Positions 30,597 to 47,774 of a stretch of 64,000 nucleotides of DNA are shown one piece after another (within the stretch, counting starts at the first letter, position 1; each line of letters opens with the position of its first letter). The notes under the pieces are model-generated. The model was given only the letters and a program-made list of their open reading frames with translations. It made no database searches and was not told the DNA's origin. This DNA is from Bacillota bacterium (GTDB taxonomy: Bacteria > Bacillota > Clostridia > Christensenellales > Pumilibacteraceae). The position numbers and the translations under genes were made by a program. The stretch is taken from positions 177,968 to 241,967 of the forward strand of contig WRLT01000002.1 in assembly GCA_009777485.1 (NCBI GenBank), given 5' to 3'.

Positions 30597-31187
30597 ATGT
30601 GGTGGCATGCGCTAACGATTTTCCAACAAGTTTTATTTATATTTGGCTGTTGCGCGGGCGGAATTTTAATTATTTCTATTATTATGACGCTTATCGGCAT
30701 GGGCGGCGATTCGACGTTTGATTACGAGGCTGACGCGGCCTTAGATGCAGACACTTTTAACAACGACGGTTTTTCTGGCGCGTTTGGTTTAAAGCTGTTG
30801 TCGTTTCGTTCGATTAACGCATTTGTCGGCGTGTTTTCGTGGACTACCTTTACCGTATTGTTTTTTTGGCCGATTTGGGGTGCGGTGCTGCTGGGCGTAG
30901 GCGGAGGGCTTGCGGCGGCTACGATTATGGCGTACGCGCTGTATTCTATGCAAAAGTTACAGCAAAGCGGAAACATCAGCATAGAAAACGCAGTAGGCAA
31001 AACGGCGGACGTTTATTTGCGTATAGGCGAGGCGCGTACCTCGGTAGGTAAAATTCAAATCACGGTGCAAGAACGACTGCGCGAATACGGCGCGCTTACC
31101 GATGCCGACCGTCAGCTTAAAACGGGCGAGAAGGTAAAGGTGGTTGGAGTGGTTAATGAGGATACGCTGTTAGTAGAACCATTCTAA
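30597..31187 (+). CDS. NfeD-like (YuaF-type) membrane protein, partner of flotillin
   Basis: N-terminal TM helices plus a C-terminal OB-fold-like segment (GKIQITVQERLREYGALTDADRQLKTGEKVKVVGV). It is immediately upstream of an SPFH gene. Confidence 0.6.
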   Translation: MWWHALTIFQQVLFIFGCCAGGILIISIIMTLIGMGGDSTFDYEADAALDADTFNNDGFSGAFGLKLLSFRSINAFVGVFSWTTFTVLFFWPIWGAVLLGVGGGLAAATIMAYALYSMQKLQQSGNISIENAVGKTADVYLRIGEARTSVGKIQITVQERLREYGALTDADRQLKTGEKVKVVGVVNEDTLLVEPF

Positions 31188-31291
31188 GAAGCTTTCTTAG
31201 CCGAATGGAAATCAGAGTTTACAAGGTGTTTAAAAAAGCACTGTAAATGCAATAATAAATAAATACAATAAAAAAAGGAGAAAGGTATAAG

Positions 31292-32710
31292 ATGCATTGG
31301 GGTTTTATTTTATTAATCGTGTTTGGGGCGTTGTCGATGTTCAGCTTTTTAATGGTGCTGGCGGCGCGCTACAAAAAATGTCCGTCCGACAAAATTTTAG
31401 TCGTGTACGGCAAGGTAGGTAAAAACAAGGACGGCACTAACCGAAGCGCAAAGTGTATACACGGCGGCGCGTCGATAGTTTGGCCTATTCTGCAAGCGTA
31501 CAGCTATTTAGATTTAACGCCTATGTCTATCAACGTAGACCTTAAAAAGGCACTGTCGCGCCAAAATATCCGTATCGACGTACCGAGTGTTTTTACGATA
31601 GGTATATCCACCGAAAACGGCGTAATGCAAAACGCGGCGGAACGCTTGCGCGGCTTACCGCTTAAAGAAATTCAAGACCTTGCGCGCGATATTATTTTGG
31701 GTCAGCTGCGCCTTATTATCGCGTTGATGGATATTGAAGAAATCAACACCGACCGCGACAAATTTTTAGAGTCCGTGTCGGGCAACGTAGAAACCGAATT
31801 AAAGAAAATCGGATTACGGCTTATCAACGTAAACATCACCGACATTATGGACGAGTCGGGCTATATCGAGGCGTTAGGTAAGGAAGCGGCGTCCCGCGCG
31901 ATTAACGACGCTAAAATTACCGTTTCGCAAAAAGAACGCGACGGTGCAATCGGTGTTGCGAATGCAGAACGCGATAAGCGTGTTGCGGTAGCGCAGGCCA
32001 ACGCAATAGCGGTAGAGGGCGAAAACGAAACACTGGCGCAAATCAGTCAGTCCAACGCGCACCGCCGCGAGGTAGAGGCCGAAGCCGAACGCTTAGCAAC
32101 GGTTGCCGAAATGACGGCGGAGGCAAACGCAAAGCGTGCGGCGTATCAAGCCGAACAGCAAGCAGAAGCTGCCCGTGCCGCGCGTGAGAAATCCACCTTA
32201 GAAGCCGACATCATTGTAAAGACGGAAATTCAAAAACGCAAAGTAGAGTTAGAGGCTGAGGCCGAGGCCGAAATGATTCGCCGCAAAGCAAAGGGTGAGG
32301 CGGACGGTATTAAGGCGATGCGTCTTGCCGAAGCGGAAGGTATTTTTGCGGTTTTAGTAAAACAAGCCGACGGCTTTGGGCAAATTGTAAAATCTGCGGG
32401 CGGAACGGCCGACAACGCGGTTAAGCTTATGATGGCGGATAAAATCGAAACGCTGGTGGCAACGCAGGTAGAGGCGATTAAAAACATCAAAATCGACAAG
32501 GTTACGGTGTGGGACTCTATGGGCGGAGGAAACGACGGAACGACTACCACCGCAGGGTTTTTATCCGGCATGGGGCGTTCTATCCCGCCGCTGAATGACT
32601 TGTTTAAAATGTCGGGCTTACAGCTGCCAGAGTTTTTAGGCAAAGAGGTAAAGCCCGCCGACAAGCCTGCCGCCGCGCCTGCCGCCGACAAGCCGTCCGC
32701 AAAAAAATAA
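31292..32710 (+). CDS. Flotillin-like SPFH/band-7 protein
   Basis: N-terminal TM, then an SPFH domain, then a long AEAEA-rich coiled coil (EAEAERLATVAEMTAEANAKRAAYQAEQQAEAARAAREK…). Confidence 0.8.
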   Translation: MHWGFILLIVFGALSMFSFLMVLAARYKKCPSDKILVVYGKVGKNKDGTNRSAKCIHGGASIVWPILQAYSYLDLTPMSINVDLKKALSRQNIRIDVPSVFTIGISTENGVMQNAAERLRGLPLKEIQDLARDIILGQLRLIIALMDIEEINTDRDKFLESVSGNVETELKKIGLRLINVNITDIMDESGYIEALGKEAASRAINDAKITVSQKERDGAIGVANAERDKRVAVAQANAIAVEGENETLAQISQSNAHRREVEAEAERLATVAEMTAEANAKRAAYQAEQQAEAARAAREKSTLEADIIVKTEIQKRKVELEAEAEAEMIRRKAKGEADGIKAMRLAEAEGIFAVLVKQADGFGQIVKSAGGTADNAVKLMMADKIETLVATQVEAIKNIKIDKVTVWDSMGGGNDGTTTTAGFLSGMGRSIPPLNDLFKMSGLQLPEFLGKEVKPADKPAAAPAADKPSAKK

Positions 32711-32839
32711 TCCGTAAAACACTTGACAAATATTTTTAAACAGTTTATTCTATATATAATGGCTTCCGAAGTACTAGTCAACTTGCCAAAAAGGTTGAAC
32801 GTTTCCGGTCCAAAATATGTAAAGGAGGTTTCAACCTAA

Positions 32840-33010
32840 ATGGCAGATAAAACTCTGATTTGCAAAGATTGCAATAAAGAATTCGTCTTTACCGAAGGCG
32901 AGCAAGCGTTCTATCAAGAAAAAGGCTTCACTAATGAGCCTGCACGCTGCCCCGAATGCCGCAAAGCCAAAAAAGCCCAGCGCAATTTCGACCGCCGCGA
33001 CAGACACTAA
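32840..33010 (+). CDS. Small zinc-ribbon protein of 56 aa with CxxC…CPxC. It is not in the ORF track because it falls below the length cut-off.
   Basis: ATG at 32840 with AAAGGAGG 9 nt upstream. The product is MADKTLICKDCNKEFVFTEGEQAFYQEKGFTNEPARCPECRKAKKAQRNFDRRDRH. It is followed by tandem terminators. Confidence 0.6.
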   Translation: MADKTLICKDCNKEFVFTEGEQAFYQEKGFTNEPARCPECRKAKKAQRNFDRRDRH

Positions 33011-33017
33011 ACAAAAC

Positions 33018-33098
33018 GCAAAAAGCGCACCGCTACTATACGGTGCGCTTTTTTAGTGTCTTTGCGCACCGTATAATTAGCGGTGCGCTTTTTTAGTG
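33018..33098 (+). terminator. Tandemly duplicated intrinsic terminator, two GCGCACCG…CGGTGCGC hairpins each followed by TTTTTT
   Basis: AAAAAGCGCACCGCTACTATACGGTGCGCTTTTTTAGTGTC, then TTTGCGCACCGTATAATTAGCGGTGCGCTTTTTTAGTGTC. Confidence 0.7.
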
Positions 33099-33250
33099 TC
33101 ATAGTTAAAAAATATTTGTTTTTTCTTTTTTTTACGGTCATATGCTTGACAAGCTTTTTCTATTAACATATACTGTATAAGTATAACAACTACTGCAAAG
33201 GTTAAAAAATTTACGTATAAAACACAAAATTGGCACTAGGAGAAACACTT

Positions 33251-36200
33251 ATGCTGACGAAAAGAAGAGTTTGGGTTTATGGTTTGGTACTGTTTGCGCT
33301 TATAGCGGGCATGACGGTTTTAATGCTGTTTGGGGGCGCGCCGCGTGTAGCAAGCGGCATCCAAGGAAACGGAACGGCCGACAATCCGTACATACTTTCA
33401 AGCGCGGAGGATTTAGCGCAGCTTGCACAAGAAACCAACGCTTCGGGCGGCGCGAGCGGCGTTTATTATGCGCTGGGCAACGATATAGATTTAACGCACT
33501 ATCTATCGGTGTCGGGTGCGGGCTATAACGGCGGCAAGGGTTTTGTGCCGATAGGCTTAGATGCGCAGCATGCGTTTCGCGGCGTTTTAGACGGCGGCGG
33601 CTATACCGTTACGGGTTTATTTATCCACGATACTTCGCTTAAATACGCGGGGCTGTTCGGCTATACCTACGGAACGGTGCGCGATATTAATATAGAGGGT
33701 GCGGAAATTACCGCCGCCGAGCATGTAGGCACGGTTGCGGGCTTTGTGAATGCGGGCGTCATTTTAAATGCGCAGGTTACCGATAGTGCGGTGCGCGGTT
33801 CTAAGCGCGTGGGCGGTATAGTAGGAGAATTGTATAATAGTAGTTCTGGGCTTAGCCGCAGCAGCTTTTCGGGCAGTGTACAAGGCGCGGGCAGCGGCAG
33901 TGCGTTTGACGAAATCGGCGGGCTTACGGGCTACATCGCCAACAGCAAAATTGCGCAAAGCTTTGTGTACGGTGCGGACGTTTCGGGGCGCGACAGCGTG
34001 GGCGGCATTGTGGGGCATATCAGCAGCAGCGCAACCCCTAGTATCATAGAGCAGTGTTATTTTGTAGACGGTACGGTTTCGGGACGCAACTATGTGGGGG
34101 GCATTGCGGGCGATGTAAACCGCACCAACGCAAACGCAAACAGCTTTATTATTAACTGCTACGCCTCCGGCAGTGTACGTGCAAGAAACTTTGCGGGCGG
34201 CATTGCGGGTTATCTGTACGACGGCAGTATTACGTCCAGCGCGGCATTAAACCAAAGCGTGGTGGCGGATATAACGGATAACGGCGGGGCGCAGATAGGT
34301 TCGGCGGGGCGCATTACGGGCTATAAAAACGCGGGCACGCTTTCTAATAACATCGCGTTTTCGCGCATGCAAAGCGTTGACGGCTTAGATGTAGGCGCGG
34401 CGTTTTTATCGGGTGAGTTCGGGCTTGACCGATTAAACGGCGAGGATATTAAGTCGGGAGAAATTTTATTCGATGCAACGCTGGGCGGACGCTTTAACGC
34501 CCCCGTTTGGACGGTAGAGGAGGGCAAGTTGCCTAGCTTTGATACTCCGCACAGCGTACCTAATTATTTATTGCCGCTTGCAATCAATGCGGGAATGTTT
34601 AACGCGGTTGCTGCCCAAACCTACAACGGCCTTGCGCATACGCCGCAGGTAAGCGCGGTAAACGGAGAGGTTACCTTTACCATTACCGCCTACCGCAACA
34701 ACGTAAACGCAGGGCTTGCGGAGATAGAGGTTGCAGGGACGGGCGACTGGGGCGGCACGGCAGAGATTGCCTTTACCATAAATCAAGCAGTTCCCGCATT
34801 TACAGAGCCGCTTAATCTAACGGCTGTTTACGGCGATACGCTGGCGGATGTAGCATTGCCCGAAGGCTGGGCGTGGGTAGATAATCTTGCAACTTCCGTA
34901 GGTACGGCGGGAGAGCGGGGATTTTTAGCAACCTTTACGCCCGTCGATACGGATAATTTTATAACCATTGTGTTTGAGCTTACCTTAAACGTTGCCTTGC
35001 AACCCGTAGCCATACCGCAAGTTATTGCGGGATTAGTGTTTAACGGCGAGTCGCAAACAGGTGTAGACTTTGATAATACGCTTACCGCATACGAACTGGT
35101 AGGCGGTTTCACATCTGGCACAACCGCAGGTACCTATATAGTGCGTTTTAGTCTAAGGGACAATTATATTTGGTCGGACGGCACAAGCGGCGATATAAGC
35201 TTAACGTGGACTATCGGCACGCTTTCGGGCGCGGCGCAGGTAAGCATGCCTGATTTTGTGTTCAGCGGAAACGCGGCCGCGCCGTCGGTAGCTATACTAT
35301 CAGGAGAATGGGACAGCACGGTATTTGAATTTAGTTCTGATAACTTTACCTCACGGCTTGCCGCCGCACCTATTGACGCAGGGGTTTATTATGTGCGTGC
35401 CGTTTTAACGCAAAGCCCTAATCAGTACGCGGATTTACTAACCGACAGCGTGCAATTTAAAATTCTGCCCTTAACGCTTACCAATCAGCTAGGCTTAGTG
35501 AGCGGACAATTTATATACAACGGGCTGCCGCATACCCCCGCGCCCGCATTGCACGGGGATATGAGAACAGCGCGCGACTACACGGTATCGTATCAAAACA
35601 ATGTGCATGTCGGCCTTGCCACCGTAACCGTTACGGGCGTAGGCAATTATGCGGGTGCTATCAGCGTAACGTTTGCTATTGTCCCTGCGCCGCTTACCGT
35701 AACTCCCGTTGCGGGGCAAAGCAAGATATTCGGTGAAAGCGACCCGACCTTAGCTTTTACGGCGGAAGGGCTTTACGGCGGCGATACGTTAAGCGGATTA
35801 TTATCGCGGCAGGCGGGAGAAAATGCGGGGCAATACCTTATCCAAATAGGCACGCTTGCAAATCCCGACTACCAAATACAGTTTGTTTCGGAGGTTATAT
35901 TTACCGTTGAAAAGGCGCACGCGGACGCGCCGCTGCTGCGCATTGCATCTGCAACCGATAACAGCCTTACCGTAAGCGCGGTGGAGGGTGCGGAGTATAA
36001 ACTAAATAACGGCGAATGGCAAAGTTCTAATGTGTTTACGGGGTTAGACGCAAAGACCGATTACACGGTATATATCCGTTTTGCCGAAACCGAAAACTTT
36101 TATCAGTCCGAAGAATCGTCGGCGCACTTTGTAACCGCGCCGCCGCCGCGCCGCGTGCCGTTATGGCTGTGGTTTATTATCGGGCTAATCATCGGCAGTA

Positions 36201-36271
36201 TACTAACGGTTGTATGCTGGTTTGTTGTAAAGAAAAAAAAGACGGACGAAAAGCCGCGCGTAAACGCGTAA
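33251..36271 (+). CDS. Large surface protein with GLUG-motif repeats, tandem Ig-like (MBG-like) domains, a fibronectin-III-like domain and a C-terminal TM anchor with KKKK
   Basis: Promoter TTGACA-17-TATACT at about 33140-33170. Signal/TM at the N-terminus. Repeated VGGIVG/VGGIAG/AGGIAG GLUG-like motifs. Two YNG..HTP…Y.NNVN.GLA…VTG.GNY copies. An FN3-like segment (…YKLNNGEWQSS…TDYTVYIRF…). The C-terminus is LWLWFIIGLIIGSILTVVCWFVVKKKK. Confidence 0.6.
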   Translation: MLTKRRVWVYGLVLFALIAGMTVLMLFGGAPRVASGIQGNGTADNPYILSSAEDLAQLAQETNASGGASGVYYALGNDIDLTHYLSVSGAGYNGGKGFVPIGLDAQHAFRGVLDGGGYTVTGLFIHDTSLKYAGLFGYTYGTVRDINIEGAEITAAEHVGTVAGFVNAGVILNAQVTDSAVRGSKRVGGIVGELYNSSSGLSRSSFSGSVQGAGSGSAFDEIGGLTGYIANSKIAQSFVYGADVSGRDSVGGIVGHISSSATPSIIEQCYFVDGTVSGRNYVGGIAGDVNRTNANANSFIINCYASGSVRARNFAGGIAGYLYDGSITSSAALNQSVVADITDNGGAQIGSAGRITGYKNAGTLSNNIAFSRMQSVDGLDVGAAFLSGEFGLDRLNGEDIKSGEILFDATLGGRFNAPVWTVEEGKLPSFDTPHSVPNYLLPLAINAGMFNAVAAQTYNGLAHTPQVSAVNGEVTFTITAYRNNVNAGLAEIEVAGTGDWGGTAEIAFTINQAVPAFTEPLNLTAVYGDTLADVALPEGWAWVDNLATSVGTAGERGFLATFTPVDTDNFITIVFELTLNVALQPVAIPQVIAGLVFNGESQTGVDFDNTLTAYELVGGFTSGTTAGTYIVRFSLRDNYIWSDGTSGDISLTWTIGTLSGAAQVSMPDFVFSGNAAAPSVAILSGEWDSTVFEFSSDNFTSRLAAAPIDAGVYYVRAVLTQSPNQYADLLTDSVQFKILPLTLTNQLGLVSGQFIYNGLPHTPAPALHGDMRTARDYTVSYQNNVHVGLATVTVTGVGNYAGAISVTFAIVPAPLTVTPVAGQSKIFGESDPTLAFTAEGLYGGDTLSGLLSRQAGENAGQYLIQIGTLANPDYQIQFVSEVIFTVEKAHADAPLLRIASATDNSLTVSAVEGAEYKLNNGEWQSSNVFTGLDAKTDYTVYIRFAETENFYQSEESSAHFVTAPPPRRVPLWLWFIIGLIIGSILTVVCWFVVKKKKTDEKPRVNA

Positions 36272-36299
36272 CCAAAGGCACAAAGGAGGCTACATTAAC

Positions 36300-37616
36300 A
36301 TGGACGCATTATATATTATTTTATTGCTGATGGCAGGGCTTATGGCGGGCGCGGGCGTAACGTATACGATATTGTACTTGTTGCAGTTAAAGGCTGCGGC
36401 GCGGCAAGGGCTTGAATTCTGCGCGCCTACCGAGCTTGCCAAGCATTCTAAGGAAGAGGATATCAGCTTATTTATGCAGCTGGGCGCAGAGCAAGAGTTG
36501 ACGCTTGCCGAAATTGCGGATATTCATGCCGAAGAGGCGGAGGCGGAAAAAACGCCTCAGTTTAAGCAGTTTGCCCGCGCCGAAGAAGCGGCGGCGCAAG
36601 GCGGCGAGGCTACGCTTGATGAAGAAATGTTGCGCAATCTTGCGCAGGCAAACGCCGAAACGGAGGCTTTTATCTTAGAAAAAAAGGCTAACGGCAGCGC
36701 GGCAGTTCCCGCGTTAAGGTTTACTTTATCGCGCGAGGATGTATTTGATTACATAGACGATATGTGGGAGGCACTTTGCGCGGCAGAAGAAAACCCCGTT
36801 TTGCCTGGTGTTGTGCTGCGTGCAAAAAAACATTACTGCGATGCCCTGCATTGCGGCGAGTGGTGCTTTGCGCTGATGTACGAGCGCGGCAATGTGCTTA
36901 AATTTATTGTGCGCTTAGACGATGCAACCGCCGCCGAAGTTGCTGCGCGTCATACGGCGTTTAAGCGCGCGCAATTTCCAAAGGGCGAAAACTTTTACAG
37001 CCTAATCGTAGACCAATCGTTTACTAGCAAGGAAGAGGTGTATAAGATTTTAGACGCAGCCTTTGCTTACGTTTTAAATCTTTATTACCGTCAAGAGTTA
37101 AGCCGTTACGTTACGGATATAGAGGCGGCGCGGCTGGATGCGCACAAAATTCAGCAGCAGGCGGCGCAAAATGCGGACACGGCGGACGAAATGTACGCGG
37201 CGGCAATTGCCGAATACAACGAGGCGTTAAAAATCTTTATGCAGCGAAACAAGCCCGCCTTTTTTATGACGCGCAAACGCATGCTGCATTATGTGCGCAA
37301 AAGCTTACCCGATACCGCTATCACCGAACGCGAAAAGCGGTACATGCCCGCAAGCTTAAAAATCAATCAAAAAACGTACGCGCTGGTATACGAAAAAATA
37401 GACCATAGCAGTACGGATAACCTTCAAACATACGTATCGCTAATCGTGCGCATTTCGGATGCTTACGCAAAATGGCTGTGTCATCGCCACCCTAGGGTGC
37501 GCCGTGCGCGTTTCCCCAACAACCGCAATTGGTACGTTGTGCCCGTAGACGGGTCTTTTTACAGCGCGCAAATGGCGTACCGCGTGCTTAAACACGCCAA
37601 ACAATTTGTTCAATAA
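36300..37616 (+). CDS. Hypothetical protein with an N-terminal TM helix, co-directional with the upstream surface-protein gene
   Basis: 438-aa ORF with a hydrophobic N-terminus (IILLLMAGLMAGAGVTYTILYLL). I recognise no motifs. Confidence 0.4.
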   Translation: MDALYIILLLMAGLMAGAGVTYTILYLLQLKAAARQGLEFCAPTELAKHSKEEDISLFMQLGAEQELTLAEIADIHAEEAEAEKTPQFKQFARAEEAAAQGGEATLDEEMLRNLAQANAETEAFILEKKANGSAAVPALRFTLSREDVFDYIDDMWEALCAAEENPVLPGVVLRAKKHYCDALHCGEWCFALMYERGNVLKFIVRLDDATAAEVAARHTAFKRAQFPKGENFYSLIVDQSFTSKEEVYKILDAAFAYVLNLYYRQELSRYVTDIEAARLDAHKIQQQAAQNADTADEMYAAAIAEYNEALKIFMQRNKPAFFMTRKRMLHYVRKSLPDTAITEREKRYMPASLKINQKTYALVYEKIDHSSTDNLQTYVSLIVRISDAYAKWLCHRHPRVRRARFPNNRNWYVVPVDGSFYSAQMAYRVLKHAKQFVQ

Positions 37617-37654
37617 GATTTTAAAATACCATTTAACACAAGGAGAAAAAAATT

Positions 37655-38047
37655 ATGAAAAACAGTGCTAACCAAAAATTTGCTTTGTGCGCACACTGCG
37701 GCAACCTGGTAGGGATGATTCAAGATGCAAGCGTTCCTCTTGTATGCTGCGGACAAGAAATGAAAGTGCTGACGCCGCACACCGCAGAAGCGGGTGTAGA
37801 AAAGCATTTGCCTGTTGTAAGTCTATCGTATGATTCCGCGCACGTTAAAATCGGTTCGCTGCCGCACCCGATGGAAGAGGCGCACCATATTTCGTTTGTG
37901 TTTGTCGAAACCCAAAACGGCGGGCAGCGCAAACGGTTAAGCGTGGGCGATAAGCCCGAAGTCGCATTTAGCTTTATAGACGATAAACCGCTAGCGGTGT
38001 ACGCATACTGCAATCTGCACGGTCTATGGAAAACGCAAATAAAGTAG
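37655..38047 (+). CDS. dfx: Desulfoferrodoxin (superoxide reductase)
   Basis: N-terminal desulforedoxin-like CxxC…CC motif (LCAHCGNLV…VCCGQEM) and the C-terminal SOR site (…H…H…CNLHGLW). Confidence 0.8.
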   Translation: MKNSANQKFALCAHCGNLVGMIQDASVPLVCCGQEMKVLTPHTAEAGVEKHLPVVSLSYDSAHVKIGSLPHPMEEAHHISFVFVETQNGGQRKRLSVGDKPEVAFSFIDDKPLAVYAYCNLHGLWKTQIK

Positions 38048-38053
38048 TTAGTT

Positions 38054-38178
38054 GTGAGTGATTGCAGAATTTGTCTGACGCTTAAATAGTTAAAATGTTA
38101 TAAATTAATTAGATAGTTAAAATAAAGCAAAAGAGGGGGAGAGTTTTTGTATTTGGCGAAAGGAGGATAGAAAAACTT
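38054..38178 (+). promoter_or_regulatory. Conserved promoter and leader cassette, copy 1
   Basis: …TGACGCTTAAATAG…GTTATAAATTAATTAGATAG…AAGAGGGGGAGAGTTTTTGTATTTGGCGAAAGGAGGATAGAAAAACTTATG. It is shared with the copies at 39531 and 40231. Confidence 0.6.
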
Positions 38179-38739
38179 ATGAAAAAAACGTTAATAAATA
38201 TTTTGGCGATAGGGGTGATTTTAATTATGGGATTAGGAGGATGCAGTGCAAAAGACCCGAACTTTGGTCAAATAAAAGGCTTAGAAAACGCTGCGTTTGC
38301 CGCGCGTTTTTATAAAAGAGATTTTTTTATAGAGCCTGAACAAATAGACGTAAGTGAGGCGTTTGTATCCGTAATCAACAATAAAGCCGAGTTAAGTATA
38401 TGGAACGAAACCGAACAGCAATCGGGACTTCTATATAACGATATTGACGAATGGAACAATTTTTATTTAGAACATATAGATATCTACGATAATGATTTTT
38501 TTGAAAAGAATCAACTGGTGTTGATTGTGTTTTTAGACGGACTTGCATTTCATAATTGTAGCGTAAATGAAATTCGTTTTCAAGATAATGTATTATATGT
38601 GAACTTTGAAACAGCCTTAGTACGCAAGGGATGTCAAAGTTACGGTGTTTTTCCAGCCATGCCGCCCGTCAGACTTGCCGTTATAGAAATTACAAAAATA
38701 ACCAACAACTTGAAAGTAGAATTTAGTTTTTTCAAGTAG
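38179..38739 (+). CDS. Lipoprotein, paralog family member 1
   Basis: Lipobox LGGC (MKKTLINILAIGVILIMGLGGCSA). It is preceded by the conserved promoter and leader. Confidence 0.6.
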   Translation: MKKTLINILAIGVILIMGLGGCSAKDPNFGQIKGLENAAFAARFYKRDFFIEPEQIDVSEAFVSVINNKAELSIWNETEQQSGLLYNDIDEWNNFYLEHIDIYDNDFFEKNQLVLIVFLDGLAFHNCSVNEIRFQDNVLYVNFETALVRKGCQSYGVFPAMPPVRLAVIEITKITNNLKVEFSFFK

Positions 38740-38755
38740 TAAAAATTTTGATTGA

Positions 38756-38800
38756 AAGGTTGACGCTTAAAAAATAAATTGATATAATAAATATAAGATT
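38756..38800 (+). promoter_or_regulatory. Fourth copy of the TTGACGCTTAAA…GATATAATAAAT promoter, with a different leader, upstream of 38845
   Basis: GGTTGACGCTTAAAAAATAAATTGATATAATAAAT. Confidence 0.55.
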
Positions 38801-38844
38801 GTTTGCAACTTAAATCTACTAATTTCTGTTGAGGAGGTTTTTAA

Positions 38845-39462
38845 ATGCTTTGCAAGGACTGTAAACAAATGAATGATACAGACGCAGAAGTTTGCATTTA
38901 TTGCGAAAAGCGTTTAAAAACAAACAGCTTTACCGAAAGAAGCAACACGGAAATAAGTAAAAATGAAAATCATACGGTATGGGGAATAGCGGAAAACACA
39001 CAAAGCAAAAAGAATCTTATTCTAAAAGTAATGATTCTTTTAAGCCCAGCCATTATTTTTACAATTGGTCAATTTGTACAGCTTTTTATACGGCTTGCCG
39101 ATTCTTATCCCTCAAGCTATATAAGGCAGAATGTTTTAATTGGGTTCTTTGTAAGTTTTATTTATGAAGTATTTCTTATTATTTTATTGCCGCTGACGGT
39201 ATGTGCGATATTGTATATATTCGGAAACAAAAAATATAACCGCCGAATAATCCTATTTTTTCAAGTACTGCTGGTGCTGTCATTTACCGCAGCACTTGTT
39301 TATCCAACGCTATCTCTTATTATAGCAGGAGCGTATAATATAGAGGGCTTTGTTGCAATATCTGTTTATTTATTGGTAGTTATCTTTTTTATGATTGACA
39401 CAGCTGCGTTATTAAAAAACTCCAAAAAACACAAAAGGAGATACAAAATGAAAAAAAGTTAG
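38845..39462 (+). CDS. Membrane protein with an N-terminal zinc-ribbon (CKDC…CIYC) and 4-5 TM helices
   Basis: MLCKDCKQMNDTDAEVCIYCEK followed by hydrophobic helices. Confidence 0.55.
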   Translation: MLCKDCKQMNDTDAEVCIYCEKRLKTNSFTERSNTEISKNENHTVWGIAENTQSKKNLILKVMILLSPAIIFTIGQFVQLFIRLADSYPSSYIRQNVLIGFFVSFIYEVFLIILLPLTVCAILYIFGNKKYNRRIILFFQVLLVLSFTAALVYPTLSLIIAGAYNIEGFVAISVYLLVVIFFMIDTAALLKNSKKHKRRYKMKKS

Positions 39463-39660
39463 ATTATAGGACTGCCGTATTATTTGCGGCGTTTTTATAT
39501 CGTCTTAGGTGAAACAAAACATAATTATTTGTGAGGAATTTGTAGAATTTGGTTGACGCTTAAATAGGTAAAATGATATAATAAATTAGATAGTAAGAAT
39601 AAAACAAAAAAGAGGAGAGCTTTTGTGTTTGGCGAAAGGAGAATAGAAAAAACTATAAAA
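39449..39660 (+). repeat. About 210 bp repeat unit (cassette junction, promoter and leader), copy 2
   Basis: ATGAAAAAAAGTTAGATTATAGGACTGCCGTATTATTTGCGGCG…TTGTAGAATTTGGTTGACGCTTAAATAGGTAAAATGATATAATAAAT…GAGCTTTTGTGTTTGGCGAAAGGAGAATAGAAAAA. It is near-identical to 40144..40348. Confidence 0.65.
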
Positions 39661-40119
39661 AAAACAATAACAAAAATTTTAACAATGGGGATGATTTTAA
39701 TTATGGGATTAGGAATTTTTGCGGGGTGTGGCAACAATAAAAGGCATCCGAATTCAGACCCTGACATTGAAACAGAATTAGAAATTAAGATAAGGCAGAA
39801 CTATATTAAGAAGCTTCCAAAAAATTCAAGGGTTAAAATGAATAATCTTTGGGTTAGCAAATATTATGGCACATTTGATGAAAGTGTTGTGCTAATATTT
39901 CAAACCAGCCTATCGGAGTCTTCTATTTTGCCTGATGGTGGTCTTGGAAATATTACTAAAGAAACAATTGCAGGCTTTGAGTTTATTTTTGGCACATCAT
40001 CCTGGATTAATGTTTGGTACAATGGAAATTTTTACAGCTTACTTGATGCTTACAATGATGGACTGTTAACATCAGACGACATTGAAAGTATTTGGTTACA
40101 ACGACAATCTAAAAACTAA
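39625..40119 (+). CDS. Lipoprotein, paralog family member 2 (start ambiguous)
   Basis: Signal peptide …ILTMGMILIMGLGIFAGCGNN. The ATG used by member 1 is ATA here (…ACTATAAAAAAAAC). The frame opens at GTG 39625, or at an internal ATG at about 39682. Confidence 0.5.
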   Translation: MFGERRIEKTIKKTITKILTMGMILIMGLGIFAGCGNNKRHPNSDPDIETELEIKIRQNYIKKLPKNSRVKMNNLWVSKYYGTFDESVVLIFQTSLSESSILPDGGLGNITKETIAGFEFIFGTSSWINVWYNGNFYSLLDAYNDGLLTSDDIESIWLQRQSKN

Positions 40120-40143
40120 ATAAGATTAAGAAAAACGGAGAAT

Positions 40144-40348
40144 ATGACAATGAAAAAAGTTAGATTATGGACTGCCGTATTATTTGCGGCGTTTTTTATA
40201 TCGATTTAGGTGAAACAAAACATAATTATTTGTGAGGAATTTGTAGAATTTGGTTGACACTTTAAAAATAAGTTGATATAATAAAGTAGCTAGTAGGCAC
40301 AGGCAAAAAAAGAGGAGAAGTTTTGTGTTTGGTGAAAATAGGTTTTTC
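40144..40348 (+). repeat. About 210 bp repeat unit (cassette junction, promoter and leader), copy 3
   Basis: ATGACAATGAAAAAAGTTAGATTATGGACTGCCGTATTATTTGCGGCG…TTGTAGAATTTGGTTGACACTTTAAAAATAAGTTGATATAATAAAG…GAGAAGTTTTGTGTTTGGTGAAAATAGG. Confidence 0.65.
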
Positions 40349-41455
40349 ATGGCTAAAAAACTAACAGGAATGGTCGTTATAGCGCTAATGCTGCTTGGAT
40401 TGACGCTGTTTTCTGTAGGATGCAACCATATAAACGACTATTCGGACGGGGACGCGCCGTTTTATTTTGACGAACAGTATCTTTTTTTGAAAGTAGGCGA
40501 AACAGCCGATTTAAATATTCGTGAAATATTCAAACATAGCGGAATAAACATTAACAAGTATTCGTTGCGTAGCAGTTCGGAGTGGGTTGCTAGCGTGAAA
40601 AACGAAACAGTTACGGCACTTCGAGCAGGGAATCAAAGCATTGGCTTTATAGGTCATACAACGATTCATGCCACATTATATGATAGCAGCACCAAGAAAA
40701 AACATAATGTCCTAGTTGCCCAAGTTTTTGTAATTAATGAATCGGAAATGACTGCGGTGAGTTCAGCAGAGGATTTAATTGCAATTAAAGAGGATTTAGG
40801 CGGTTGGTACGTTTTAAAGGCTAATATCGATTTAGACGGCGCAGAGTGGCAAGGATTGGGTACTTTTACTGGGATGCTTGTGAATAGCGGGGAATTCGTC
40901 ATAAGCAACCTTTCCGGCACCACAGGATTGTTTGCTGCAAACGAAGGCTATATTAGCGGCATTATACTAGAAAATGTGTCCATTAATAAGACGTCCGACG
41001 ATGAGTTTATCCAACTTGGCACGATTGCGTCAATAAATACTAAAGGTGCAACTATCGCTAATTGCAGCGTAAAAGGTGTAATAAAATCAAGCGGTGTTAC
41101 AGGAGGGATAGTAGGCTACAATACTAGCAGCATAATCAACTGTTCGTTTGACGGAATGGTAACAAGCCAAAGCAATAGAACGGCGGATGAAATTCTTGAA
41201 AGCGAGAATTTTTATGATGTAGCGGGCGGTATCGTTGGAATAAACAGCGGAATAGTGGTACACTCAACCGCAAAAGGTCAAATTTCGTCAATGTTGATAG
41301 CGGGTGGAGTTGTCGGTATCCATTTCACGGCGATGTCAGACGGTCGGGTGGTCAATTGTGATTTTGACTTTGTTCAAGAGTTACCCAATAGAATTGTTGC
41401 CCCTATATGGGGCCGCACCATAGGTTGGGAGCAGACGCTTGTAAATAGAGTTTAG
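40349..41455 (+). CDS. Secreted or lipoprotein product with GLUG-like repeats and an Ig-like N-terminal domain
   Basis: Lipobox-like FSVGC. GGIVG-type motifs occur at several positions. The ATG at 40349 is preferred, because the leader region reads through as in the paralogs. Confidence 0.5.
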   Translation: MAKKLTGMVVIALMLLGLTLFSVGCNHINDYSDGDAPFYFDEQYLFLKVGETADLNIREIFKHSGININKYSLRSSSEWVASVKNETVTALRAGNQSIGFIGHTTIHATLYDSSTKKKHNVLVAQVFVINESEMTAVSSAEDLIAIKEDLGGWYVLKANIDLDGAEWQGLGTFTGMLVNSGEFVISNLSGTTGLFAANEGYISGIILENVSINKTSDDEFIQLGTIASINTKGATIANCSVKGVIKSSGVTGGIVGYNTSSIINCSFDGMVTSQSNRTADEILESENFYDVAGGIVGINSGIVVHSTAKGQISSMLIAGGVVGIHFTAMSDGRVVNCDFDFVQELPNRIVAPIWGRTIGWEQTLVNRV

Positions 41456-41504
41456 CAAATTAAAGAAAATAAAAAAATGACATTTTGTCACAAAGGAGTA
41501 AAAA

Positions 41505-44500
41505 ATGAAAATAGCAAGCAAAAGTAAGAAAAAGATGGTAGGTATATTTTTAGTTTTGTGCCTTGCGGCAGCAGCAAGCCTAATCATTTTCATGCGGCCA
41601 AGTTCAACGGTCGCTCATGCATCCACAGAACTAGAGCAAAAACACATTGAATGGACAAATTCAGACATTCTGATGGACGGCGAAGGTACGATACAAAACT
41701 ATCGCACAAATCGCTATACAAACGGTGTTTCAGTTACGTCATCAGCAATGACGGTAACTGGCAATGATCCAATTATACATATAATTCCCGTGGAAGAGTT
41801 CTCAACTTTAGGGTTGAGAACATTTATGGGCGAAGAGTATGGTTGGATAATCGATGTGTTCAATGATTCATGGGGCATCCGTCGGGCGCTTATCCAAGTA
41901 ATAGATATTACTGTTAAATGGGAAAAAGTTTTAGACTACGAGTTTATGATTTCACCTTTGTTTGAGTACGAATATGCGGTAATTCCTGCAGGCACTGGAC
42001 AGGTGCGAGTAAGGCACTGCAATGTAGAGGGTCGTGTAGAGGGAGATTATGTATATACCGCGACTAATTTGCGAAACAAAACTCTAAGCTACACCAACAA
42101 CACGGGTGCGCAAAGAGTTGTTGCAATGCCTTTAATACATACACCTACAAGATTTACAGAGCGAATATCGTTTTGGGGATCAAGGAAATATAATATTCAA
42201 AACTTTTCTGTTGCAGCAGAGTTAGCTAACAGATTCGCTCCCAATCCTTGGGATACAAATTACGACTTAGACACGGATTTAGGTGCGTTCTTTTGTTTTT
42301 CGGAGTTATTATACAAGAATACGGGCATTAATGTCAGCCCCTATGATCCATGGCATACAGTAAAATTTGGTGCGTCAGTTGCGACTATTGGGTTTGATGG
42401 ACTCTTTCAATATATTGATTTATTAGTTGAGTTTTATAATTTAGTGGCAAATTCAGTAGAACCAAATGAGAAAACGTATAACGCAGTACAATATGGGGCT
42501 AGTGAATTAAGAGCTACTTATTTTGGTGATCGCTTGCAACAAAAAAGACCCCCTGATTTGCCTCTGCATGAAGATCCTGGCTATGGTAAATTGATTAAAC
42601 TTGCTTCGGTTGATGTTTTTGCAGATTTAAACAGACCTTTAAGACCACAACCATTGGATAGATATAATTCACACGGTGCAGACCACAAGGGAGGTAGATT
42701 TGGCATAGTGTGGAATGCGGAGAACTCGTCGCAATTAGTAACGACATATCAGTTTACTGTTAAAGATATGACTTTTGGTCCCACATTAAAACTTGTAAAT
42801 GGTGTTCGATATAAAAACATTGGTCTTGGTGCTGATTTGATTACTCAAAATAATGTTGTTACAGGATTTGTACCTCCCCCTAATTTCAATGGTATTTTAG
42901 AAATTCCTAATGGAGCTACAGCTATTGCTTCAAATGCTTTTGCCAACCAAGCCCAACTAACTCAAATCTTGATACCTGAATCCGTAACTACAATAGGAAA
43001 TAACGCTTTCCACGCCAACACATTGGTGAACTGGCAAGGGAACTATTCGTTTAGAGGATCACAATTTTTAGGCATTTTAGGTGGGCAGACAAGCTTTTCT
43101 TTGCCATCGACCATTGCAGGTATAAATATTACTTCAATAGCTACCGATGCTTTCTCTAACCAAACCCAGCTTTCTTACATTACCATTCCTCCAAGCATAA
43201 CCAGTATTAGCAGTTTTGCGTTTCAAGGTTGCACTGGTTTAACCTCTATTATTATACCTAAAAGTGTAACCAGTATCGGGCAAAATGCGTTTAATGGATG
43301 CCATAACTTAACCATTTTTGCCGAAGCTTCAAGTAAGCCGAATGGTTGGGATAATTTATGGAATCCGCATAATCAAACCGTAGTGTGGAGTTTTAACTCT
43401 GCCTTGCCTTTTGCAATTACAGACGGCGCGTATTATGTACTGGAAGGAGGCGAAACGGTTTTAAGACGGTATATAGGTAACGAAAGTCAATTTTCTTTAC
43501 CCGATTCTGTTGTAATTGACGGAGTTAGCCGTCCCGTGACAAGCATTATGCGGGGTGCGTTTGAGGGCGCGAATAACTTAGAGTTAATCGAATTGCCGTT
43601 TATAGGTGAAAGAGCAGACGGAACGGGTGCAACGCATTTTGGTTGGATATTCGGCTCAACGCACGCTGTTGTGCAAGGCTACCATATTCCGCAATCGCTA
43701 AAAACGGTGGAAATTGTAAATAGCGGTAATAGTATCCGAATCGAAGATGATGCGTTTCACGGTTGCGCAAATATTTGGTATATTCATATACCTGCTAATG
43801 TTACCTATATTTCTGATAAAGTTTATTTTAGTGCGTTTGAGGGCTGCTCAAGCTTAATTAAAATTATTGTTAACGGCGGAAATTTGCACTATGCAAGCAC
43901 TGATGACGGAATATTATATGATATAGAGAAAACCCGTATTATTTATGTGCCGCATGGTATTAGCGGAGATATTGAGTTGCCGTCCTCGTTAATCAGTATT
44001 TCAGAGCGGGCGTTTGAAAATCGCGTAGACATTACAAGCATTGTTATTCCCGAAAGCGTTACGCATATCGGATTAAATGCGTTTAGTAATACGGTTGTTT
44101 TGGAAATAGAGGATGACGTAATTTATGCGGGAAACTGGGCAGTAGGATTTTTGCACAAGAATGGTTATTATGACTCAAACGGTAATTTTATGTATGAAGT
44201 TACGGTTTCGCTAAGACCTGGTACTGTGGGGATTGCTGACAGGGCATTTAGTAGTGCTAATTCTTTAACAAGTATCCATCTACCTGATAGCTTAAAATAT
44301 ATCGGAAATGGGGCTTTTTGGTTTGCAACGAAATTAGCTGAAATAGACATCCCCGAAGGTGTGGTAAGTATCGGCGAGGAAGCGTTTTTGCGCTGTGATT
44401 CTTTGCGCAGTGTTAAGCTACCCGACAGCTTAACGTATCTTGGCTATCGTGCATTTTTTAACTGCGGTCGCCTTTTGGAAATAAATTTACCAATTGGCAT

Positions 44501-46856
44501 AGAACATGTAAAAGCGGGAGCATTTTTGGGTTGTTCGAACTTGGCGAAGGTCATTTTTTCTAGTGACTTAAGAGAAATTGATGCTGGAGCATTTGCAATG
44601 ATATCTGAATTGACAAGCATAGTTATACCTAATTCTGTGGAGCGTATTGGACAAGGTGCATTTCACAGTAGTTTTATAGAAACTATAAGTTTACCGTTTG
44701 TAGGTGAAAGAGCAGACGGAATGGGTGCTAGGAATTTTGATTATATATTTCGTGAGAGCGAGTTATATTCTAGTTTTTGGTTAAGACTTGATAGCGCAAC
44801 TATAATGGGTGGAGATATTTCATCGAATGCATTTAATGGTTTAGATGAGCTAACAAATGTTGTCCTTTCTAGTGGCGTAGTGAACGTAGAAGCAAACGCA
44901 TTTCAAGATTGCACCAATTTAACGATTTATGTCGAAGAGGAAAGTCAACCGCTTAATTGGGCAACTAATTGGAATTCTGGTCGCCCCGTTATATACGGTA
45001 CTACATTGTCGGTGGACACATTATATATTGAATCAATTATAAAGACTACGGATATGCATAATGGGCATGTAATTTCTGCGCCTTCACGTGCAGACCATGT
45101 TTTTAGCGGCTGGAATACGGCGACGGATGGAAGCGGCACCAACTATTTATTTACAACTCAATTGGATTACAACGCTATACCAAACGGAACTAAATTATAT
45201 ACTATGTGGGTGCATGTTTTGGATATTATTAATGTGATAAGTAATGATGAATTGATAATTGTTTGCGATAACACTTTGCCTAAATTTGAGGCAGCAGAGT
45301 TTACAATACGCGGAGTAGAGTCTTTGGCGTTTTTTTATGGCAATTCATTTGACAATACTATTTCTGAGTTTAATTTATTAGATGTGCTTCATCTTGCGCC
45401 CGAAACTTATGTGCTTGATACGTTGATTATTAAATATAGACTTAAATTTGAAGAAAGACCTTGGACAAAAAATTTTGAAAAAGAAGTATGTGCTTTATTT
45501 GGCGGTAAATTAATGCTTGACGGAATAACATATGAAATTATAAATAGTGAGCGGCACTTAAGAAATATAAGGGCAGAGGGAAATTATATTTTAACTCATA
45601 ATATAAATATCGATTCTAATTGGACACCGCTTTCAATAAATTTCAGTGGCCTATTTAATGGGAATGGGAATAGTATCACGGCTGCTAATTTAATTGTAAT
45701 ATCGGATAATTTATTTGCCAATAATAACGGAGAGATTATAAATCTAGATGACCCCTATGCTGGGCTTGATATAGTAGGCAATACCGTTACAGGCTACTTC
45801 GGCACCTCTGCCGCAATCGCTATCCCCGAAGAGGTTGACGGAATAGCGGTAACGTCTATCGCCGCAGGCGCATTCGCCGACAATACAAGCCTAACCAGCG
45901 TTTCCATTCCGCACAGCGTAACCTCTATCGGTTTAGGCGCGTTTAGCGGCACGGAGAGCCTAGAAAACCTAAGCATTCCGTTTAGCGGGCAAAACCGCAA
46001 CGGCGGCAATAACACGCACTTCGGCTACATATTCGGCGCGCAAAACATGAACGGGCAAGCCTCCTTTATTCCGCAATCGCTAAAAACGGTGCGCATAGAC
46101 GGCTTAAACGGTACGCAAATCGCCAACAACGCGTTTAACGGCATAGGCGGCGTAGAAACCGTAATCATCGCAGACGGCGTAACCACAATCGGCAGCGACG
46201 CGTTCCGCAACAATTCCGCGCTTACCTTTATAGAAATTGCCTCTACCGTTTCCAACATCGCCAACGCATTCGGCAACAGCCCCAACGCGGCGGTCAAGTG
46301 GCATTTTAACGCCGGCGCGGCGGTTAATAATTTCCGCATGAACCTAACGGAGGTTGTCATTCCCGACACCGTTACGGCACTCCCGAACAACGCCTTCCGC
46401 GACTGCGTGAACCTAGTTAGCGTAACAATCCCCGCCAGCGTAACGTCTATCGGCAACAGCGCGTTTCAAGGTTGTGTAAGCCTAACCGAAATCGCACTGC
46501 CCGCAAGTGTTACGGAAATAGGGGCGCACGCGTTTAACGGCGCAACAAGCTTAACCGACATCATTATTCCGCACGGCGTAACCACCATCCGCGACAACAC
46601 CTTTAGCGGTTGCAGCGCACTAACTAGCATTGTCATTCCCGCCAGCGTAACGCAAATCCAAAGCGACGCGTTCCGCAACTGCAACGCCTTAACTACCGTC
46701 TACTACGGCGGCGAAAGCGCGGCGCAGTTTAACGCCATAAACACAGGCAACAACGCACAGGTTGTAAACGCAACGCGCTACTATTATTCCGAAACCGAAC
46801 CCGCAACACAAGGAAACTTTTGGCACTTTGCAGACGGCGTTCCCACCGCGTGGTAA
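41505..46856 (+). CDS. Giant cell-surface protein of 1783 aa with BspA-type leucine-rich repeats
   Basis: Signal peptide. It has dozens of repeats of the form [IL]xIPxSVTxIGxxAFxxCxxLTxI. The C-terminal block YYGGESAAQFNAINTGNNAQVVNATRYYYSETEPATQGNFWHFADGVPTAW is paralogous to the C-terminus of the 2..2902 product. Confidence 0.7.
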   Translation: MKIASKSKKKMVGIFLVLCLAAAASLIIFMRPSSTVAHASTELEQKHIEWTNSDILMDGEGTIQNYRTNRYTNGVSVTSSAMTVTGNDPIIHIIPVEEFSTLGLRTFMGEEYGWIIDVFNDSWGIRRALIQVIDITVKWEKVLDYEFMISPLFEYEYAVIPAGTGQVRVRHCNVEGRVEGDYVYTATNLRNKTLSYTNNTGAQRVVAMPLIHTPTRFTERISFWGSRKYNIQNFSVAAELANRFAPNPWDTNYDLDTDLGAFFCFSELLYKNTGINVSPYDPWHTVKFGASVATIGFDGLFQYIDLLVEFYNLVANSVEPNEKTYNAVQYGASELRATYFGDRLQQKRPPDLPLHEDPGYGKLIKLASVDVFADLNRPLRPQPLDRYNSHGADHKGGRFGIVWNAENSSQLVTTYQFTVKDMTFGPTLKLVNGVRYKNIGLGADLITQNNVVTGFVPPPNFNGILEIPNGATAIASNAFANQAQLTQILIPESVTTIGNNAFHANTLVNWQGNYSFRGSQFLGILGGQTSFSLPSTIAGINITSIATDAFSNQTQLSYITIPPSITSISSFAFQGCTGLTSIIIPKSVTSIGQNAFNGCHNLTIFAEASSKPNGWDNLWNPHNQTVVWSFNSALPFAITDGAYYVLEGGETVLRRYIGNESQFSLPDSVVIDGVSRPVTSIMRGAFEGANNLELIELPFIGERADGTGATHFGWIFGSTHAVVQGYHIPQSLKTVEIVNSGNSIRIEDDAFHGCANIWYIHIPANVTYISDKVYFSAFEGCSSLIKIIVNGGNLHYASTDDGILYDIEKTRIIYVPHGISGDIELPSSLISISERAFENRVDITSIVIPESVTHIGLNAFSNTVVLEIEDDVIYAGNWAVGFLHKNGYYDSNGNFMYEVTVSLRPGTVGIADRAFSSANSLTSIHLPDSLKYIGNGAFWFATKLAEIDIPEGVVSIGEEAFLRCDSLRSVKLPDSLTYLGYRAFFNCGRLLEINLPIGIEHVKAGAFLGCSNLAKVIFSSDLREIDAGAFAMISELTSIVIPNSVERIGQGAFHSSFIETISLPFVGERADGMGARNFDYIFRESELYSSFWLRLDSATIMGGDISSNAFNGLDELTNVVLSSGVVNVEANAFQDCTNLTIYVEEESQPLNWATNWNSGRPVIYGTTLSVDTLYIESIIKTTDMHNGHVISAPSRADHVFSGWNTATDGSGTNYLFTTQLDYNAIPNGTKLYTMWVHVLDIINVISNDELIIVCDNTLPKFEAAEFTIRGVESLAFFYGNSFDNTISEFNLLDVLHLAPETYVLDTLIIKYRLKFEERPWTKNFEKEVCALFGGKLMLDGITYEIINSERHLRNIRAEGNYILTHNINIDSNWTPLSINFSGLFNGNGNSITAANLIVISDNLFANNNGEIINLDDPYAGLDIVGNTVTGYFGTSAAIAIPEEVDGIAVTSIAAGAFADNTSLTSVSIPHSVTSIGLGAFSGTESLENLSIPFSGQNRNGGNNTHFGYIFGAQNMNGQASFIPQSLKTVRIDGLNGTQIANNAFNGIGGVETVIIADGVTTIGSDAFRNNSALTFIEIASTVSNIANAFGNSPNAAVKWHFNAGAAVNNFRMNLTEVVIPDTVTALPNNAFRDCVNLVSVTIPASVTSIGNSAFQGCVSLTEIALPASVTEIGAHAFNGATSLTDIIIPHGVTTIRDNTFSGCSALTSIVIPASVTQIQSDAFRNCNALTTVYYGGESAAQFNAINTGNNAQVVNATRYYYSETEPATQGNFWHFADGVPTAW

Positions 46857-46929
46857 AAGTAAAGGCGCGCGAAAAAGCTTGCGGCAAAAACTCATGTCGT
46901 AAACTGTTAAAAAACTTAGTTAAATTTAG

Positions 46930-47255
46930 TTGACATATTTTAATAAATAGGGTAGTATATAAGCGTTACAAGCAGATGAGTAATCTCACCGTGCGGCAAG
47001 CGGCTGGCTACGGTAACGCAAAAATCAGATTTCAAAAGTGTTTTTAAAGCACTTTTTAAATACTTTTGCGGGTAGAGATAGTCATCTCTACCCGTTTTCT
47101 TTTTTTTGCCGATATCTTTTTAATAAATTTCCGTTTTTTTTTGCCCCTATTACGTAGCGTTGCTACGCTTTTGGGTCAAAAAAAATCGCAAATTTTTTTA
47201 AAAATCTATTCGGCAAAAATTGTCCCCTAAATTATCCCTAAGGAGGGTAAAGCCC
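46930..47255 (+). promoter_or_regulatory. Promoter plus infC-rpmI-rplT leader, with an attenuator hairpin (L20-type autoregulatory leader)
   Basis: TTGACA at 46930 and TAGTAT at 46953. The leader is about 300 nt and structured. The intrinsic terminator GCGGGTAGAGATAGTCATCTCTACCCG plus a T-run lies at 47068-47108, inside the leader before infC. Confidence 0.5.
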
Positions 47256-47774
47256 ATTAATTTTAAAGATGTGGAAATCAATCAAAGAATCCGCGACCGC
47301 GAGGTGCGCGTGATTGCCGCCGACGGTGCACAGCTAGGCATTATGAGCGCGGCAGACGCTAACCGTCTTGCGGATGAGAAAAATCTTGACTTGGTTAAAA
47401 TTTCGCCTACCGCCAAACCGCCCGTATGCAAGATTATGGATTTTGGCAAATTTAAGTTTGATACGCAAAAGCGCGAAAAGGAAACGCGCCGCAACCAAAA
47501 GGTTTCGGAGCTTAAAGAGGTTTGGCTTTCGATGACTATCGATAAGCACGACTTAGAAACCAAAGCAAAGCACGCGCGCAAATTTTTAGCGGCGGGCGAC
47601 AAGGTAAAGGTTTCTATCCGTATGCGCGGACGGCAAGCCGCGCACGCAACGCTGGGCGTTAAGGTAATGGAAGATTTTTATGTTTTATGCGAGGATTTAT
47701 CGGTTCAGGATAAAAAGCCGTCTACGGAGGGCAGAAGTATCATCATGATACTGGTGCCCAAAAAAGCAACCTAA
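47256..47774 (+). CDS. infC: Translation initiation factor IF-3, with an ATT start codon
   Basis: IF-3 sequence (INFKDVEINQRIRDREVRVI…). AAGGAGGG lies 8 nt upstream of ATT at 47256. A non-AUG start is characteristic of infC autoregulation. The track's upstream ATG at 47220 precedes the SD. Confidence 0.8.
   Translation: MNFKDVEINQRIRDREVRVIAADGAQLGIMSAADANRLADEKNLDLVKISPTAKPPVCKIMDFGKFKFDTQKREKETRRNQKVSELKEVWLSMTIDKHDLETKAKHARKFLAAGDKVKVSIRMRGRQAAHATLGVKVMEDFYVLCEDLSVQDKKPSTEGRSIIMILVPKKAT

Follow-up and report, generated by a model that had tools for sequence, protein, structure and literature searches.

Four consecutive plus-strand genes in a 64,000-nt window of a Bacillota bacterium genome (assembly GCA_009777485.1, contig WRLT01000002.1, positions 177,968 to 241,967) carry a repeated regulatory segment at their 5′ ends. 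The window is the whole stretch of DNA analyzed, and all positions below refer to it. We call the genes A to D; they start at 38179, 38845, 39625, and 40325. A, C, and D encode predicted lipoproteins with mutually unrelated mature parts, and B encodes a putative membrane protein. The explanation that we favor, and hold to be reasonably probable, is the local propagation of a terminator–promoter–leader–signal-peptide module inside an acquired surface-protein island. One ancestral 5′ module would have been copied locally, and partly recombined, in a short chain of independently expressed surface-protein genes, so that nonhomologous genes would have come to share expression and export signals.

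In its full form, the module would consist of a terminator-like hairpin (part 1), a 47-nt upstream block (part 2), a sigma-70-type promoter with a TG-extended −10 element (part 3), a leader some 60 nt long that holds two initiation sites in the same frame (part 4), and a lipoprotein signal peptide ending at the lipobox (part 5). Copy C would retain all five parts, copy A parts 2 (proximal portion only) to 5, copy D parts 1 to 4a, and copy B part 3 only. Such a module would supply transcription, initiation, and lipoprotein-export signals to unrelated genes, and later gene-conversion-like exchange would have homogenized the upstream halves of C and D.

A Repeated 5′ Module Precedes Four Consecutive Genes

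How much of the module does each gene carry? A first reading of this locus, made from the sequence without database searches (hereafter, the sequence-only reading), had listed four copies of one promoter. Four copies do lie 5′ of genes A to D, but the exact string occurs once, in C, whereas B and D represent a subtype with a 17-nt spacer and A is degenerate. The −35 block with its flank, GGTTGACGCTTAAA, has six matches with at most two mismatches in the 64 kb, compared with 1.0 expected, and four of them are at 38073, 38758, 39551, and 40252. A promoter scan recovered 11 to 12 of 12 consensus positions, with a TG before the −10, at 38760 (B, 11/12), 39553 (C), and 40254 (D, 12/12), and by this consensus we predict sigma-70-type promoters with a TG-extended −10.

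Copy A of the cassette (38054–38178, plus strand) was delimited by alignment and in-frame translation. Its promoter is degenerate (−35 CTGACG at 38075–38080, an 18-nt spacer, and −10 TATAAA at 38099–38104). Upstream of gene B stands the promoter only (38758–38794, plus strand; TTGACG, 17 nt, TG-TATAAT), without the shared leader; it is 91% identical to the D promoter over 34 nt and 89% identical to that of C over 36 nt. Copy C (39447–39654, plus strand) includes the remnant of a mini-open reading frame (mini-ORF), the hairpin, the 47-nt block, the promoter (TTGACG-18-TATAAT, 39553–39582), a first Shine–Dalgarno sequence (SD1) with its GTG, and a second (SD2) followed by ATA. Copy D (40144–40348, plus strand) includes the mini-ORF, the hairpin, the 47-nt block, a promoter that equals the consensus (TTGACA-17-TG-TATAAT, 40254–40282), SD1, and GTG; the second half of its leader is not conserved.

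A 106-nt upstream module with a terminator-like hairpin is common to C and D only. The promoter and terminator scan places stem–loops with runs of five to six Ts at 39473–39491 (C; −15.5 kcal/mol, z = −3.6) and 40173–40191 (D; −12.1 kcal/mol, z = −2.1). Both fit an intrinsic (Rho-independent) terminator, for which a GC-containing stem–loop with a U-run immediately behind it is diagnostic and which would act on the preceding gene. The hairpin of D is overlapped by an intact, hydrophobic mini-ORF of 21 codons (40144–40209; MTMKKVRLWTAVLFAAFFISI), which has its own SD. In copy C the mini-ORF is frameshifted (39449–39505), and its first codons supply the C terminus of gene B (...KMKKS*). A parent gene for the mini-ORF peptide was not found within the window; the mini-ORF is probably what is left of the 5′ end of some gene. 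The two repeats had been described as starting right at the 3′ ends of the preceding genes, which holds only approximately: repeat C takes in the last 14 nt of gene B, and repeat D starts about 25 nt past the stop codon of gene C.

The copies resemble each other to different degrees along their length. Cassettes C and D, called near-identical in the sequence-only reading, are 85 to 87% identical over about 200 nt. Segment U1 (mini-ORF and hairpin) is 90% identical between them and differs mainly by single-base indels in homopolymer runs, and segment U2, the 47 nt up to the −35, is identical at 47 of 47 positions, but identity downstream falls to 59 to 78%. Only the proximal ~30 nt of U2 are retained in A, at about 79% (a manual count). 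Promoter segments are 84% (A–C), 86% (B–D), and 78% (C–D) identical and fall into two spacer subtypes, 18 nt (A and C) and 17 nt (B and D). Leader segment L1 gives 73% for A–C and 72% for C–D, leader segment L2 gives 81% and 59%, respectively, and the signal peptide segment is 72% identical between A and C, with all other pairs no different from shuffles. Exact runs reach 53 nt (C–D), 23 nt (A–C), and at most 14 nt in other pairs. Within 150 nt 5′ of the starts, A and C are 84% identical over 132 nt, and C and D are 86% identical over 151 nt. The copies are, in short, mosaic: C equals D in the upstream part, A resembles C and B resembles D in the promoter spacer, and A resembles C in the leader and signal peptide. 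This grouping of segments points to past duplication or recombination: the cassettes are homologous, and recombination or conversion among them in the past is likely.

Two Predicted Initiation Sites Share One Frame in the Leader

The leader core, TTTTGTGTTTGGCGAAAGGAG, is present at 38145, 39621, and 40321 with one, zero, and three mismatches, respectively, and at no position in 100 shuffles. The three leader copies proposed earlier thus stand as far as the core is concerned, but D keeps the first half of the leader only; B lacks it. In-frame translation of the A, C, and D leaders shows that they hold two SD–start pairs in a single frame. The first pair (GAGGAG, 7 nt, GTG) is present in C (SD1 39612–39617, GTG 39625) and D (SD1 40312–40317, GTG 40325); in A the linked start codon is dead (GTA at 38149). 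The second pair (AAGGAGG, 12 nt, ATG) is intact in A only (ATG 38179). Copy C has the SD2 sequence AAGGAG, with ATG changed to ATA at 39655, and in copy D SD2 has decayed to AAATAGG while ATG 40349 remains. The suggestion that GGCGAAAGGAG in the leader doubles as an SD therefore holds for gene A, but it fails for C, where the ATG is lost, and for D, where the SD is lost.

Because the upstream GAGGAG-7 nt-GTG is kept in both C and D, the leader core there probably encodes an N-terminal extension (MFGERRIEK... and MFGENRFF..., respectively) translated from the GTG. The NCBI annotation uses the GTG starts too (C, 164 aa; D, 376 aa). A single functional start would then remain in each lipoprotein copy, the ATG in A and the GTG in C and D, with ATG a further possibility in D.

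The Module Is Followed by Unrelated Proteins

Are the genes behind the module related to one another? As the sequence-only reading had it, A, C, and D are all lipobox proteins: each passes a PROSITE-type rule ([LVI..][ASTVI..][GAS]C, with the Cys within residues 15–35, a basic n-region, and an N-terminal signal peptide), which makes them predicted lipoproteins, that is, putative Lgt and LspA substrates. Gene A (38179–38739, plus strand) encodes 186 aa with lipobox LGGC at Cys22, and its codons 1–22 are homologous to the signal peptide of C. It is an ORFan, whose only match among 5.8 billion proteins is itself; the probability of so long an open frame by chance is about 1e-7, which makes gene A almost certainly coding. 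The single-sequence AlphaFold2 (AF2) model of A is uninformative (pLDDT 31). Gene C (39625–40119, plus strand) encodes 164 aa with the lipobox Cys35 counted from the GTG, and its mature part falls into a widespread but unnamed family of domains some 110 aa long, with 652 representatives at E ≤ 1e-3; the AF2 model of C has a pLDDT of 88. Gene D (40325–41455, plus strand) encodes 376 aa, with Cys33 from the GTG or Cys25 from ATG 40349, and carries a GLUG/M26-N-like region according to Pfam; by segment identity its signal peptide shares no homology with the A and C signal peptides.

The three genes had been taken for paralogs, and they are not: the mature proteins are unrelated at the protein, profile, and DNA levels. 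BLASTP among A, C, and D aligned only the A/C signal peptide (about 25 codons), and in hhalign comparisons of A and D with a profile built from 32 C-family sequences, the signal peptide was again all that aligned. Local DNA alignments of the mature parts score at shuffle level (z from −1.2 to 1.1), compared with z = 59 for the cassettes. The A/C similarity ends abruptly at the lipobox cysteine. Nor does the cassette travel with the C family, since the closest homolog of C (P0021, 47% identity, on contig L040 of a related metagenome) has an unrelated upstream region. A further candidate cluster member, P0008 on L039, was rejected as unrelated.

Gene B (38845–39462, plus strand; 205 aa in the ORF list) combines an N-terminal CxxC-x10-CxxC zinc ribbon with about four hydrophobic segments, both read from the sequence; Pfam gave nothing above threshold. 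The earlier description of a zinc-ribbon membrane protein and GLUG proteins interspersed with the lipoprotein genes is thus borne out by the motifs of B and by the GLUG match in D, except that the GLUG protein is itself the third lipoprotein. NCBI calls B as 197 aa from M9 (38869), which drops the zinc ribbon's first CxxC; with GAGGAGG 7 nt before its ATG, the start at 38845 (205 aa) is better supported. PHROGs, PADLOC, and NCBIfam returned nothing meaningful for A to D.

Copies Elsewhere and Variation between Assemblies

Extra cassette copies were absent from the rest of the 64-kb window and from 21 kb of a second contig belonging to this genome (about 85 kb in total). Scans for the leader pattern gave 12 matches in GTDB species genomes, 18 in JGI metagenome contigs, and 4 in IMG/VR, all of them isolated 21-mers without extended similarity; these collections did not return even the source contig, and the scans have no bearing on copy number genome-wide. 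An alignment search with the shared N-terminal peptide reported "no candidate" and is uninformative, as it did not recover the query's own proteins either. The locus had no blastn match in phage and plasmid collections.

Is the arrangement variable? Gene order B–C–D is the same, at ≥99.9% identity, in five assemblies: the NCBI metagenome-assembled genome (MAG), ENA ERZ27257348, ERZ27257296, and ERZ27257302, and JGI 3300002469. Four further contigs from four samples cover the locus in part (L034, 39328–40941; L036, 38841–40578; L002, to 39918; L033, from 39852). The strain comparison proposed earlier as a check, made here across assemblies, yielded one order and single single-nucleotide polymorphisms (SNPs) only, and neither deletion nor hybrid contigs were found among the assemblies compared. 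One of these SNPs (40286 G>T, in ERZ27257302 contig L036) changes the tail of the D −10 from AATAAAG to AATAAAT, as in copies B and C, which hints at micro-conversion at most. Ongoing copy-number change or rearrangement is unsupported. Assemblies collapse minority variants, and the static order is therefore only weak negative evidence.

The Module Lies in a Low-GC Island

Genes A to D and a fifth gene, all on the plus strand, occupy a low-GC island at about 38050–46880, recognized from its composition profile and from Pfam. Its GC content is 32 to 41%, compared with about 48 to 52% in the flanks, which carry a desulfoferrodoxin gene (37655–38047) on one side and infC (47220–47774) on the other (both by Pfam). 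That the island was horizontally acquired, by a host represented by an uncultured Bacillota/Clostridia MAG, forms part of the explanation we favor. The fifth gene (41505–46856, plus strand) encodes a 1783-aa BspA-type leucine-rich repeat (LRR) surface protein (Pfam LRR_5, E = 1e-137). Because the 49-nt gap between D and this gene holds no terminator-like site and no 11–12/12 promoter match, promoter D probably drives both genes; the gap also lacks a cassette. A palindrome in this spacer (TGACA-TTT-TGTCA, 41478–41490), just 5′ of the SD of the BspA gene, could be an operator site.

The NCBI MAG ("Firmicutes/Bacillota bacterium") annotates the region as proteins MCL2061668-74, locus tags FWH03_03480 to about 03510. 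ENA contig ERZ27257348:k141_2288666 is 100% identical to the window over 28179–46618, and two contigs of JGI 3300002469 are ≥99.7% identical to the window. Homologs of neighboring genes come from the same ENA series, one of them labeled "Clostridia bacterium FACS1894211". A 1295-aa NCBI BspA entry was considered as a structural variant and rejected, being a shorter start call. The JGI contig L033 (its positions 6768–10173) tracks the window into the BspA gene; from 46619 onward (window 46619–46880) Ns and mismatches accumulate, and beyond 46876 it carries a 518-aa LRR_5/Flg_new gene and a Band_7/zinc-ribbon gene in place of infC. The ENA contig stops exactly at 46618. Over its last ~240 nt, the BspA gene shares 68% identity with the 3′ terminus of the 884-aa LRR gene at 248–2902. 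These observations point either to an ambiguity of the assembly or to BspA paralogs having recombined at their 3′ ends.

Homologs (about 53% identity) of the 438-aa gene upstream sit in differing contexts, and there is therefore no empty site with which to compare the island. The window has a second low-GC island (about 30 to 36% GC, 7981–14821), with two restriction–modification modules. One pairs an HNH protein with a D12-class adenine methyltransferase, the other a HaeIII-type endonuclease with a C5 cytosine methylase.

Discussion

How did the copies arise, and do they still recombine? The sequence-only reading had proposed cassette amplification by homologous recombination. The homologous, mosaic copies agree with this for the past, but amplification in progress was not seen. 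We think it unlikely, though by no means fanciful, that the cassettes act today as homologous-recombination substrates for gene conversion, copy-number change, and shuffling of the lipoprotein genes. The mosaic structure and the SNP that gives D the base of B and C speak for such activity, as does the 53-nt exact C–D run, which could support RecA-type recombination and flanks gene C as 700-bp direct repeats; they are set against the invariant B–C–D order (itself a weak negative), the lack of deletion or hybrid contigs, and exact matches between copies that, C–D excepted, do not exceed 23 nt. An old tandem duplication is, in our view, improbable as well. A two-gene unit (type-1 promoter with lipoprotein gene, then type-2 promoter with a second gene) would have given A–B and C–D, with the coding regions then diverging or being replaced; it would account for the alternating promoter subtypes, with their 18-nt (A, C) and 17-nt (B, D) spacers, and for the near-equal periods of 1476 nt (A to C) and 1494 nt (B to D). 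Yet noncoding sequence is 80 to 86% identical while coding parts have no residual similarity, the reverse of simple divergence, and B is a predicted membrane protein where D is a predicted lipoprotein; the equal spacing also works only because differences in gene and spacer length happen to offset each other.

Could the conserved 5′ parts instead be switches? In Mycoplasma vsp/vpma loci, a tyrosine recombinase of the Xer1/Mbr/HvsR type and inversions place one promoter beside each gene in turn (PMC2268961). Clustered lipoprotein genes with a conserved 5′ untranslated region (UTR) and prolipoprotein signal peptide but dissimilar mature regions, as in vsp, vpma, and vlp (PMC2268961 and references therein), recall the present locus, where both elements are present in A and C, D shares the UTR part alone, and B has no more than the promoter. 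That a site-specific recombinase acts at these conserved 5′ regions to switch the expressed gene is nonetheless highly improbable here: Pfam found no recombinase or integrase domain in the genes of about 24.8–49.2 kb and 0.2–17.3 kb of the window, all genes point the same way, and a promoter copy stands before every gene, unlike a layout in which silent copies depend on a single active promoter; the promoters in the locus are not bordered by inverted repeats. Unlike the Mycoplasma systems (PMC2268961), the locus also shows no inversions, no intragenic repeats, and no variation between assemblies. Scarcely better is the case for the leader as a cis-regulatory RNA (a riboswitch, attenuator, thermosensor, or small RNA target) that coregulates the three lipoprotein genes posttranscriptionally. 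A 17- to 21-nt core is kept in all three leaders, and only copy A has SD2 within a hairpin (−10.9 kcal/mol, z = −3.6). But the leader has no Rfam match even at E ≤ 5, shuffled sequences fold as well as the C and D leaders (z = −0.2 and +0.2), the consensus fold reaches −2.1 kcal/mol with 0 compensatory pairs (three sequences only, hence low power), and the core is probably coding in C and D. We regard this role as very unlikely.

Several considerations weigh against local propagation of a 5′ module as well. The promoter, terminator, and start sites are consensus-based predictions only, judged by consensus the promoter of copy A is weak, and a 12-nt gap separates SD2 from the ATG of A. The copy count covers the 64-kb window and the 21 kb of another contig. 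The perfect 47-nt block of C and D could reflect functional constraint (a regulator site or an UP element) rather than recent conversion, and the similar A–C and B–D spacing could mean the old two-gene tandem duplication.

The locus is an ordinary case of known regulatory-sequence reuse and gives no indication of a new mechanism. "Putative mobile promoters" (PMPs) were defined as homologous upstream sequences of ≥50 nt and ≥80% identity before nonhomologous coding sequences (CDSs) (Matus-Garcia, Nijveen & van Passel 2012, PMC3488235). Within about 150 nt upstream, the pairs A–C and C–D have this length and identity; B matches over only 34 to 36 nt (89 to 91%) and is therefore below the required length. 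The downstream CDSs are nonhomologous by BLASTP, hhalign, and DNA alignment against shuffles, and a known riboswitch, insertion sequence (IS), or miniature inverted-repeat transposable element (MITE) is not indicated by any Rfam match, flanking inverted repeat, or phage or plasmid match. As in PMP families (PMC3488235), the family is small (two to four members), has neither an IS nor a riboswitch signature, and varies more close to the start codon. Unlike them (PMC3488235), its copies are in tandem within 2.3 kb rather than dispersed, and the homology enters the signal peptide (A, C) and the upstream terminator-like hairpin (C, D).

Tandem arrangement of the copies in an island has a parallel among lipoproteins. 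The Staphylococcus aureus lpl cluster consists of tandem lipoprotein genes on an acquired island with repeated 5′ regions, and its mature proteins are true paralogs (DUF576). The two loci share the tandem, island, and repeated 5′ layout and differ in that the mature proteins here are unrelated.

What would the module mean for its host? At its most ambitious, it could be a portable "express-and-export" adaptor, in which recombination at the conserved 5′ part and the lipobox boundary repeatedly recruits new coding sequences, including ORFan A, while C–D recombination still shuffles or deletes cassettes in the population. We consider this improbable; if true, the locus would be a recruitment site for new surface proteins. 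On the explanation that we favor, local propagation of a 5′ module, the locus would show, cleanly and on a small scale, how unrelated genes in an acquired island come to reuse regulatory and export signals, with a module boundary exactly at the lipobox and two alternative in-frame starts, each lost in different copies. In practice, it flags ambiguities of start codons and annotation, and it is a source of candidate strong promoters, and of a lipoprotein leader, for uncultured Clostridia of a termite-gut lineage.

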